IMG/VR virus record: IMGVR_UViG_2778260969_000004
From: a virus
Taxonomy: Duplodnaviria; Heunggongvirae; Uroviricota; Caudoviricetes
Length of the DNA: 5,815 nucleotides
Reading direction: 5' to 3' (one strand)
The position numbers were made by a program. How positions within the stretch are numbered: position 1 is the first letter of the stretch; each line of letters starts with the position of its first letter. Of the stretch, positions 1 to 3,000 are shown in pieces.

Positions 1-3000
1 AATTTCTTTCGTCCACGGATTAAGGCCGTACTGGTTGGCGACGATCAACAATGCGATGAACTGCGCATCGCTGGCATCGCCTTTAAATGCCGTCTGGCGA
101 AGAGTGGTGATCAGTTCCTGTGGGTCGACAGAATCCATGCCGACACGTTCAGCCAGCTTCCCAGCCAGCGTTGCGAGTGCTGTACTCATCCGTTTTATAC
201 CTCTGAATCAATATCAACCTGATGGTGAGCAATGGTTTCAACCATGTACCGGATGTGTTCTGCCATGCGCTCCTGAAACTCAACATCGTCATCAAACGCA
301 CGGGTAATGGCTTTTTTGCTGGCCCCGTGGCGTTGCAAATGATCGATGCAGAGTGATTCAAACAGGTGCTGGGGCAGACCTTTTCCCATGTCGTCTGCCA
401 GTTCTGCCTCTTTCTCTTCACGGGCGATCTGCTGGTAGTGACGCGTCCAGCTCTGAGCCTCAAGACGATCCTGAATGTAATAAGCGTTCATGGCTGAACT
501 CCTGAAATAGCTGTGAAAATATCGCCCGCGAAATGCCGGGCTGATTAGGAAAACAGGAAAGGGGGTTAGTGAATGCTTTTGCTTGATCTCAGTTTCAGTA
601 TTAATATCCATTTTTTATAAGCGTCGACGGCCTCACGAAACATCTTTTCATCGCCAATAAAAGTGGCGATAGTGAATTTAGTCTGGATAGCCATAAGTGT
701 TTGATCCATTTTTTGGGACTCCTGGCTGATTAAGTATGTCGATAAGGCGTTTCCATCCGTCACGTAATTTACGGGTGATTCGTTCAAGTAAAGATTCGGA
801 AGGGCAGCCAGCAACAGGCCACCCTGCAATGGCATATTGCATGGTGTGCTCCTTATTTATACATAACGAAAAACGCCTCGAGTGAAGCGTTATTGGTATG
901 CGGTAACGCCGCGCTCAGGCGGCTTTGATAGTCATATCATCTGAATCAAATATTCCTGATGTATCGATATCGGTAATTCTTATTCCTTCGCTACCATCCA
1001 TTGGAGGCCATCCTTCCTGACCATTTCCATCATTCCAGTCGAACTCACACACAACACCATATGCATTTAAGTCGCTTGAAATTGCTATAAGCAGAGCATG
1101 TTGCGCCAGCATGATTAATACAGCATTTAATAAAGAGCCGTGTTTATTGAGTCGGTATTCAGAGTCTGACCAGAAATTATTAATCTGGTGAAGTTTTTCC
1201 TCTGTCATTACGTCATGGTCGATTTCAATTTCTATTGATGCTTTCCAGTCGTAATCAATGATGTATTTTTTGATGTTTGACATCTGTTCATATCCTCACA
1301 GATAAAAAATCGCCCTCACATTGGAGGGCAAAGAAGATTTCCAATAATCAGAACAAGTCGGCTCCTGTTTAGTTACGAGCGACATTGCTCCGTGTATTCA
1401 CTCGTTGGAATGAATACACAGTGCTGTGTTTATTCTGTTGTTTATGCCAAAAATAAAGGCCACCATCAGGCAGCCTTGTTGTAAATGTTGCAGGTATCAA
1501 GTAAGTAATTAGATGGAGCGCCATAAATTATGAATTCATCGTTTGTCGGGTCCATCTCCATCTCTTGTCCTATTGCCATTCTTGCGTCAGTGTCGTCAGC
1601 GGCGAAGCATAAAACAGCCCACGCACCCATTGTTTTAAAAAGAACTGCAATTGGCTGTGGTTTTACTGAATTTGCGTTAGCGCGAAAATCACAAATCGCA
1701 CTTTCATGAAATTCCATATATCACCTCAAATAAGTGGTTTGCTGCCTAATTTCATTTTCTGGCGACCAACACAAGTCATCTTGCTGTCAGTTGTTTGGAT
1801 TTACGGTAGCCTGCCGCGTAAAGAGCTACATTTGGAAGACAAGTTGAGCCTTCATATTTTCTGGTCAACGTTGTCAGTGTTATTACTTCTGCTCTCATTG
1901 CTGGTTTGCGTTTGCATTGTAAGACCACTCGTGATGGGGTTGGCCTGTGTAGTTTGTCGGAGCTAATCGCCTCCTGACTTTGCAGGTTTGCGCGACGAGC
2001 TCTACGGCGAGAAGCTGCGGTGCCTTTAAATTCTGTTTTTCTGGACATAGATTCCTCCCGAATAAACTTTGGCGATGCAATCTCGAAGCTCCTCCTGAGA
2101 CGGTTGCTTCGGCATTGCATCCCACAGCTTATGTGGTTGGGTGATCTGGCTTTTCAGCCACGTAGTCGAGAGTCGACGTTGTTTAAAGAGCCTGCCAGTC
2201 TGTTCCATTTGGCTTCCAGCGTCCTGCTGATGGTTAAATAGTACGATATGTACTTCACTTGGTCAATACAATTTGTTCTAAAACGGGGCGTTTTTTTACA
2301 ACGCTTTGTATTTAATAGTATTGTTTTTTAGCGTGGGTGTATTGCCTCGGCGATGTAAGGAGAGATCAGAATTGCGTTGTTTAGTGAGTTGTATCTATTT
2401 ATTTTCCAATAAATACAATTGGTTATGTGTTTTTTTGGGCGAGAGGAAAAGAAAACCCGGCATGGAGGCCGGGTTGATGATTAGCGGTGTGGCCTTGAGC
2501 GATAATGCTCACACACATGTTCAAGATTTCCATGCCTTATCCGTTCATAGGCATTCACATGAACTTCTCGATCGAATTGGTCATTCAAATTGTATGTAGA
2601 CATCTGTGTTTTCTCATATTGGCGGCAGCCCTACAACCGCTTGAAAAAATGTACCAGACGCGCTAAGGTTACATCGCAAATATTGTGTACCTTAACAAGG
2701 GCTCCTTTTGGAGGCTCTGGTTAAACAGCATCAATGTCGGACTGGGGAGTTGGACATTGTGCTGAATGCTTTTGCATTATTGAGGCCGAACGTAAACCTT
2801 CAGAATTGAAGAGATGCGTTCGGCTTCTTCGTTTGTGATATCGTTAGGAATGCCTTTAATCGTTACTGTAACCCCTGATTCAGGTCGAAGAACTACTGGA
2901 AGATCATAGGTATGAAGTGCATTAGCCTTGCCTTCGACTTTTGTTGGTTCGCCAGTCAAATCTTTTTCCTCACTGGATTCTTTGTCAATCGGAGTGTATG

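Follow-up and report, generated by a model that had tools for sequence, protein, structure and literature searches.

The window analysed here is a 5.8-kb stretch (5,815 nt; IMG/VR virus record IMGVR_UViG_2778260969_000004) that comprises the immunity region and the early-left (pL) operon of a Shiga toxin (Stx)-converting lambdoid phage. The 517 nt that were queried are 100% identical to VT2-Sakai, to Stx1- and Stx2-converting phages of E. coli O157:H7 and to phi330. The minus strand carries the end of bet, gam, kil, cIII, ea10, the open reading frame ORF83, the antiterminator gene N, a 173-aa ORF and cI, while cro, cII and the start of the replication genes lie on the plus strand. ORF83, the subject of this analysis, follows N where phage lambda carries orf28 and ral, in agreement with an earlier, sequence-only reading of the window that had placed it at the ral anti-restriction locus.

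Window positions 1-1482 align with lambda 32622-34103 at 98.2% identity and with zero gaps. The homology ends inside the 3' end of ORF83, where the lambda/non-lambda junction had been suspected. Its last 17 nt (ACAACAAGGCTGCCTGA), which lie in ORF83, are identical at 16 of 17 positions, and judged by this alignment an ungapped 98% match of 1.5 kb terminating within the gene is not a product of chance. As had been proposed, the spacer that leads to ea10 is as long as in lambda (182 nt from the stop codon in both phages, 178/182 identical). The body of ORF83 shows no similarity to ral, neither as DNA nor as protein. A second patch of lambda sequence, missed by the sequence-only reading, is found at the 5' end, where window 1712-1742 corresponds to lambda 34352-34381 (90% over 31 nt); it contains the ribosome-binding site and the ATG-GAA start of lambda orf28, a small ORF overlapping the start of ral. 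As lambda patches are present at both borders of ORF83, the replacement was two-sided and removed orf28 and ral as one unit. The Ral sequence used in the earlier reading proved correct when checked against the lambda C-terminus (...GKQNNKAA-stop), and NKAA is indeed all that ORF83 has in common with it, the remainder being dissimilar.

A hairpin with a 9-bp stem and a 4-nt loop, AAGGCUGCC-UGAU-GGUGGCCUU, followed by UUUAUUUUU, is formed on the transcribed (minus) strand by the final codons of ORF83 together with its stop codon and the 11 nt beyond it. The hairpin (-13.9 kcal/mol, z -2.3) was detected by the terminator scan, and its sequence has the features expected of an intrinsic terminator, a G+C-rich hairpin with a U-tract immediately after it on the transcribed strand. 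The GenBank record of mEp234 annotates a rho-independent terminator at the same site, assigned independently by its depositors. Variants of the hairpin retain pairing, at -15.6 and at about -10.5 to -11 kcal/mol. In the ORF83 homologues of Salmonella phage S9-5 and of Citrobacter prophages its location is kept while the loop differs (-15.6 kcal/mol), and the 3' arm reads GGCGGCC instead of GGUGGCC, which converts a G.U pair to G-C. The unrelated gene orf184, which occupies the same slot in mEp213, ends in AAG GCC GCA TAG (K-A-A-stop), with codons pairing with CGGCCUU, and most wild ral genes among the IMG/VR matches listed carry the window-type tail intact and exactly. ORFs of the slot that stop before the hairpin have no KAA end, and P22 ral ends in KLKAI-stop and has no hairpin. 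Hence, the KAA ending is shared by ral of wild phages, ORF83 and the orf184 type because its codons are the 5' arm of the hairpin. The NKAA common to ORF83 and Ral is fully explained by a translated arm of this putative terminator, and the shared tail is not a sign of relationship to Ral. What had been described as a mosaic junction in the 3' end is, with firm support, the shared terminator tail, and caution is needed before a C-terminal KAA of this kind is taken as homology.

The ral tail of laboratory lambda (L002 2062-2112, lambda 34061-34111) carries two G-to-A changes relative to the common wild-phage tail. These destroy the hairpin and give a different fold (-5.3 vs -13.9 kcal/mol); the loss may have altered N-independent read-through into ea10 and cIII. 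A capture of the lambda Ral C-terminus from an ORF83-type tail was also considered; P22 Ral, ending in KLKAI, has the partly similar AAGGCT, and the direction of exchange could not be decided. In the HK633 copy of ORF83 (L004 2501-2890) a 1-nt deletion affects the stop codon within the hairpin, and a 129-aa read-through product is annotated. Either sequencing went wrong at this position, or the deletion is natural variation and changes the terminator as well.

The 5' border of ORF83 is a 26-nt head that is likewise present in front of lambda orf28. Its Shine-Dalgarno (SD) sequence, GAGGTG, overlaps the TGA stop codon of an in-frame relic of a lambda/21-type N, which separates ORF83 from the present N. 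HK633 has a lambda/21-type N whose C-terminus is identical to this relic, and in that phage ORF83 begins 8 nt after N. The match indicates that the N/immunity module was once swapped, at the N stop codon, and that the present P22/HK97-type N came in by this exchange.

A scan of IMG/VR for the exact head gave at least 121 occurrences at no fewer than 120 loci, and the ORFs behind it belong, among the matches listed, to at least six unrelated families. Within the 121 occurrences listed, the head is followed by orf28 (with ral) in 60, by ORF83 in 25, by a 121-149-aa protein with two transmembrane (TM) segments (MEEQANK...) in 23, by a 62-aa protein (MERKFEIW...) and the orf184 type in 6 each, and by a 72-aa protein (MEPEYIC...) in 1. 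The same 40 nt of the N 3' end stand immediately 5' of the head in ~105 of these 121, and among the matches listed the slot is closed by two hairpin alleles. Heads and tails were compared in HK633, S9-5, Citrobacter prophages, mEp213 and P22. Two heads 952 nt apart are found on one contig, and in HK633 a head of the MEEQANK type lies directly 3' of ORF83, indicating that cassettes can be stacked. The genes ral, orf28 and orf184 are absent from the complete genomes of HK633, mEp234 and S9-5, all of which carry ORF83; tblastn with lambda and P22 Ral likewise returned nothing in the three carrier genomes.

These sequence comparisons establish ORF83 as one of at least six unrelated, interchangeable genes between a fixed head and a fixed tail (Table 1). 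The firmly supported result is anatomical: cassettes coupled to N and bounded by a conserved head and a terminator tail. The simplest mechanism for their exchange would be homologous recombination in head and tail, which would fit the established mosaicism of lambdoid phages. The anatomy provides a concrete and testable account of how immediate-early accessory genes may be swapped among these phages.

Table 1. Positions of the ORF83 cassette, its borders and associated features in the window
Feature	Position	Strand	Description
ORF83	1466..1717	-	ATG start, 83 aa, C-terminus ...IYNKAA-stop; PHROG 2471
Cassette tail	1446..1477	-	intrinsic-terminator-like hairpin + U-tract; hairpin proper 1456-1477; from folding and terminator scan
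Cassette head	1712..1737	-	26 nt, CCACTTATTTGAGGTGATATATGGAA; lambda/21-type N end (PLI-stop), SD GAGGTG, then ATG GAA
Relic of lambda/21-type N 3' end	1718..1775	-	in frame, ...TCVGRQKMKLGSKPLI-stop; 58 nt between N and ORF83
Antiterminator N	1776..2048	-	P22/HK97-type C-terminus; PF25694, E 2e-32; directly upstream of ORF83, predicted to be co-transcribed
Left mosaic junction	1482..1483		lambda homology stops 17 nt within ORF83 3' end
Lambda-type spacer, ORF83 stop to ea10	1284..1465	-	182 nt; two hairpins, 1382-1429 and 1310-1331
pL promoter	2238-2266	-	TTGACC-17-TACTAT; upstream of N
nutL	within 2146..2266	-	boxA about 2183-2191 (GCTCTTTAA); boxB-type hairpin about 2148-2159 (GGCTGAAAAGCC)
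173-aa ORF	2777-3298	-	PHROG 2602, unknown
40-aa ORF	2481-2603	-	PHROG 21154
Terminator-like hairpin	2454-2475	-	between cI and pL

The start of N is most likely the ATG at 2048 rather than that at 2120, as suggested by the SD sequence GGGAGGA in front of the former and by a Pfam match that begins at residue 23 of the 114-aa ORF, the longest ORF from 2120. The terminator scan found no terminator-like site from pL to the ORF83 tail, and no promoter of its own was detected above chance for ORF83. With this stretch free of terminator-like sites, N and ORF83 would be read as an immediate-early transcript, and the tail hairpin would be the first terminator of pL, the functional counterpart of lambda tL1. 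ORF83 would accordingly be made in the first minutes of infection or induction and be silent in the repressed lysogen. Two plus-strand ORFs overlapping ORF83 (1530-1709 and 1706-1966), annotated in one Stx1 phage record, are unsupported and were ignored.

To characterize the protein, we compared copies from different genera. Between E. coli and Salmonella/Citrobacter copies the ratio of nonsynonymous to synonymous divergence (dN/dS) is 0.08-0.10 at a dS of 1.7-2.3; the S9-5 and Citrobacter homologues retain about 72-75% protein identity with synonymous sites saturated. Ten aligned full-length sequences (the window copy and nine relatives) have 43 invariant columns, and the length of 83 aa is conserved across genera. 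By these measures, ORF83 is a real gene under strong purifying selection. Truncated copies are also found (P0016, P0019), and two contigs carry an 86-aa variant with a duplicated DDT triplet in the acidic loop after beta2.

The protein had been described as unrecognised, which does not hold. It matches PHROG 2471 (unknown function) over its full length (E 1.4e-61, with residues 1-83 covering positions 1-83 of the 83-position profile) and has been annotated in 56 phage records, and a protein of identical sequence (mEp234 AFM76313.1, VT2-Sakai H0090, Silas UDP0060) has been synthesised and screened. Other searches of ORF83 were negative: Pfam gave no match at E<=10 for any of the 10 family members, NCBIfam no match, the models of known anti-phage defence in PADLOC-DB no match at E<=1, and a PDB sequence profile search no relative. 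No relatives other than close enterobacterial ones emerged from a word-indexed search of 5.8 billion proteins and an exhaustive hidden Markov model search of 1.84 billion representatives. Two long repeat proteins (P0021, P0022) were rejected as spurious, their scores being sums of weak repeats, and a resemblance of residues 23-50 to the N-domain of HicB-like antitoxins was dropped, as it was at the level of pattern and had no profile support. The possibility that ORF83 is full-length Ral after all is refuted: in hhalign, the family alignment against lambda Ral reached a probability of 0.2%, there is no Pfam match, and the two proteins are unrelated.

The predicted structural class of ORF83 is alpha/beta. 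Its conserved cysteines are only C37 and C76, 39 residues apart. The description as a small acidic protein applies to the window allele (net charge -7.4, isoelectric point (pI) 4.2) and not to the family, in which the other members have net charges of -1.4 to -4.4 and the pI ranges from 4.2 to 5.7. The idea of a DNA mimic was rejected, as the acidity is not conserved across the family.

ORF83 is annotated in Stx phages, HK106, HK633, mEp234, Gally, JEP4 and P22-like Salmonella phages, hence in the backbones of Stx phages, HK/mEp siphophages and P22-like podophages. All backbones examined have it directly after N (or N and sieB), with ea10, gene 17, cIII and kil beyond it, the position held by ral in P22 and lambda. 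Complete E. coli genomes contain it in 403 of 5426 cases (about 7%), compared with 786-875 for ral, and it ranks second among the occupants of the slot, both in these genomes and among the IMG/VR matches listed. From the sequences found, ORF83 is confined to prophages of Enterobacteriaceae.

The early-left slot after N had been described as a recurrent site for anti-restriction and anti-defence genes, and in published data it is a hotspot of accessory genes: 'Ral' regions rank 2nd, 11th and 14th of about 2000 accessory regions (Silas et al., bioRxiv 10.1101/2023.04.06.535777, Supplementary File 2). The ORF83 region has the properties of such a region, namely variable genes, conserved flanks and horizontal exchange. 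The authors screened 200 genes as pools in about 20 E. coli hosts against phages T2-T7, P1 and lambda, and their Supplementary File 3 lists AFM76313.1 of mEp234 as local ID 1060/UDP0060, without comment or highlighting (bioRxiv 10.1101/2023.04.06.535777). Ral (UDP0087), the two-TM occupant type (UDP0047) and orf184 (UDP0184) were in the same library; orf184 was placed by the authors in the accessory region of ral and is a trigger of the gop-beta-cII abortive system (Silas et al., bioRxiv 10.1101/2023.04.06.535777). In literature searches by peptide, PHROG id and accession, this supplement was the only source to name ORF83; the accession matches proved to be unrelated DOI strings. At present ORF83 is a hypothetical protein already in the catalogues, it lies in a known hotspot and its screen result is negative, so that its practical value is modest.

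The whole explanation that we tentatively prefer, at slightly less than an even chance, is that ORF83 is an interchangeable immediate-early accessory cassette behind N, possibly acting in counter-defence against a target other than EcoKI. Its functional component, a counter-defence or host-factor-binding role with such a target, is the most likely single role, if somewhat doubtful; it is suggested by position, timing, exclusivity with ral, the identity of the alternatives and the sensing of a sibling cassette by an abortive-infection system. On this view, ORF83 would be a small alpha/beta protein of the cytoplasm and would neutralise, by binding to it, some anti-phage factor of the host or of a prophage, EcoKI excepted. 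It would be a positional, not a mechanistic, alternative to Ral, being neither a Ral homologue nor a DNA mimic.

Several points weigh against this explanation. The terminator function of the tail hairpin and recombination at head and tail are inferred from sequence, and the functional role from position, timing and the alternatives. Two AlphaFold models of ORF83 are both of low confidence (pLDDT 57-59), and neither a fold neighbour nor a family or PDB neighbour was found in these searches. For each of the three replicates of the EcoKI arm (MG1655 and unmodified lambda), the screen log has the entry 'ardA, ral, ocr are hits' (Silas et al., bioRxiv 10.1101/2023.04.06.535777). The EcoKI alleviation test proposed in the sequence-only reading has in effect been run there, and only these three genes are reported to have scored. 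The accessible text, legends and supplements of the preprint and of PMC12373910 do not mention UDP0060 (orf60) as a hit for counter-defence, exclusion or conditional lethality, a negative that comes from a pooled screen in which good representation in every pool is unconfirmed and in which hosts and phages are a small sample of the possible targets. The DefenseFinder anti-defence models recognise no anti-restriction-modification gene in phi330, a carrier of ORF83 (PMC12502783).

The same phi330 result, namely that this carrier has no other recognised anti-restriction-modification gene, would suit a strict Ral analogue, in which ORF83 alleviates type I restriction by enhanced modification or inhibition of the complex, perhaps in the non-EcoKI families IB, IC or ID. 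The exact ral slot, mutual exclusion with ral in three complete genomes and early expression are consistent with this as well. We nevertheless consider it highly improbable, since ORF83 has no sequence or profile similarity to Ral, lacks its cysteine cluster and is of opposite charge, while its charge density is far below that of DNA mimics and is not conserved. Moreover, ORF83 is not reported as a hit in the EcoKI arm, although ral, ocr and ardA all came up there in 3/3 replicates, and it is not among the host-sensitising genes listed for any ECOR host. The earlier suggestion of a Ral analogue with a different target is therefore borne out as to position, in the ral slot, and fails as to similarity with Ral; on positional grounds a different target is still conceivable. 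In a role in phage competition or development, ORF83 would, for example, modulate N, the transcription or replication of the host or the choice between lysis and lysogeny, or would exclude co-resident prophages or compete with them at induction. This is unlikely, yet several observations point to it. Translation and transcription of ORF83 are coupled to N (the SD overlaps an N-type stop, and the spacing is 8-58 nt), the early-left neighbours kil, cIII, gam, sieB and gene 17 serve in host takeover, regulation or exclusion, the alternative occupants include a two-TM membrane protein, an unlikely inhibitor of a cytoplasmic enzyme, and the negative result of the counter-defence screen fits. However, the superinfection-exclusion hits of the same screen are UDP79, UDP183, cor and imm, no DNA-binding or other motif was found in ORF83, and the many lambdoid phages that have ral or another cassette in its place do without the gene, which argues against a core regulator. 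That ORF83 has no current function, as neutral filler of the head/tail recombination module or mainly a means of positioning the terminator, would agree with the lack of a reported phenotype in the only functional screen, with the loss of the stop codon in HK633 without obvious consequence and with the truncated copies. This is essentially excluded by selection, given the low dN/dS at saturated synonymous divergence, the invariant columns, the length kept across genera and the rank as second most frequent occupant of the slot.

A stronger form of the counter-defence explanation, which we regard as rather unlikely, is that ORF83 founds a new anti-defence family, as an immediate-early inhibitor of a defence system which the ~20 E. 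coli hosts screened lacked or which was masked in them. The target might, for example, be typical of enterohaemorrhagic E. coli, of Salmonella or of Citrobacter, or come from a competing prophage. If true, head and tail next to N would form a dedicated plug-in site for the exchange of first-minute counter-defence genes among lambdoid phages. The carriers include Stx1- and Stx2-converting O157:H7 phages, and the best-known occupant of the slot is an anti-restriction protein. Neutralisation of a defence system by ORF83 would mean a new orphan anti-defence family with a possible bearing on the host range of Stx phages.

Other features of the window were observed alongside the cassette. In the spacer between ORF83 and ea10, the hairpin at 1382-1429 contains a 14-bp perfect stem inside a -28.2 kcal/mol structure (z -5.4; 0/200 shuffles equally stable) and is kept in lambda and mEp213; a function in processing or stabilising the pL transcript is conceivable. 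A second, terminator-like hairpin of the spacer lies at 1310-1331. Rfam has no family for the hairpins examined, that at 1382-1429 included, and the lambda cIII thermoregulator element (RF01804) was recognised at window 797-855 on the minus strand (88.5 bits, E 3e-21). Between cI and pL, in the place of rexAB in lambda (window 2454-3298, minus strand), are the 173-aa ORF, the 40-aa ORF and a terminator-like hairpin. Pfam, NCBIfam and PADLOC searches with the 173-aa ORF were all without match, and the region is a candidate for an exclusion or defence gene expressed in the lysogen. Window 2360-2475 is a lone 87.5% match to lambda 35708-35826 (oL to the end of rexB) amid non-lambda immunity DNA and by its sequence is one more short conserved boundary segment.

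Among known systems, Ral (PF11058) is the closest in position. Both genes occupy the slot directly after N or N and sieB, upstream of ea10, gene 17 or cIII, both have the same head (for ral via orf28) and, in wild phages, the same terminator tail and so the same last residues, both would be expressed early from pL, and they are mutually exclusive in genomes. In contrast, no relationship in sequence, profile or predicted secondary structure was found. Ral is a basic protein of 66 aa (pI 8.8) with a four-cysteine cluster, C-x5-C-x2-C-x5-C, in lambda and P22, whereas ORF83 has 83 aa, is acidic to neutral and has two conserved cysteines that are not clustered; in the EcoKI arm of the screen, Ral is reported as a hit and ORF83 is not. 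The DNA mimics Ocr and ArdA resemble ORF83 in being small, early-expressed and, for the window allele, acidic. They differ in charge per residue (-0.24 for Ocr; -0.09 for the window ORF83 and about -0.04, with a range of -0.02 to -0.05, for other members), in predicted structural class, which for ORF83 is alpha/beta and not all-alpha, and in the EcoKI arm, where both are reported as hits and ORF83 is not.

A nearer parallel in build is orf184 (AFM76385.1; JQ182733.1, mEp213), which has the same slot and an identical 35-nt head, reads into the hairpin tail to end in ...DKAA-stop, and is likewise small, acidic and without known domain. Its sequence is unrelated (107 aa, net charge -17), it has distant homologues in Burkholderia, Pseudomonas and Vibrio phages whereas ORF83 is found in Enterobacteriaceae only, and it has a reported phenotype, unlike ORF83. 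More generally, work associated with Juhala/Hendrix and Susskind-Botstein reportedly describes morons and accessory regions of lambdoid phages and mosaic exchange of modules at conserved boundary sequences. The ORF83 cassette is moron-like in being a single gene that has short conserved borders and a terminator, that is found in one genome and missing from another of otherwise almost the same sequence, and that moves among backbones of siphoviral, podoviral and Stx-phage type. Classical morons have their own promoter and are expressed from the prophage; the ORF83 cassette, in contrast, has no detected promoter of its own and depends on pL and on the translation signals of N, which would make it an immediate-early lytic gene.

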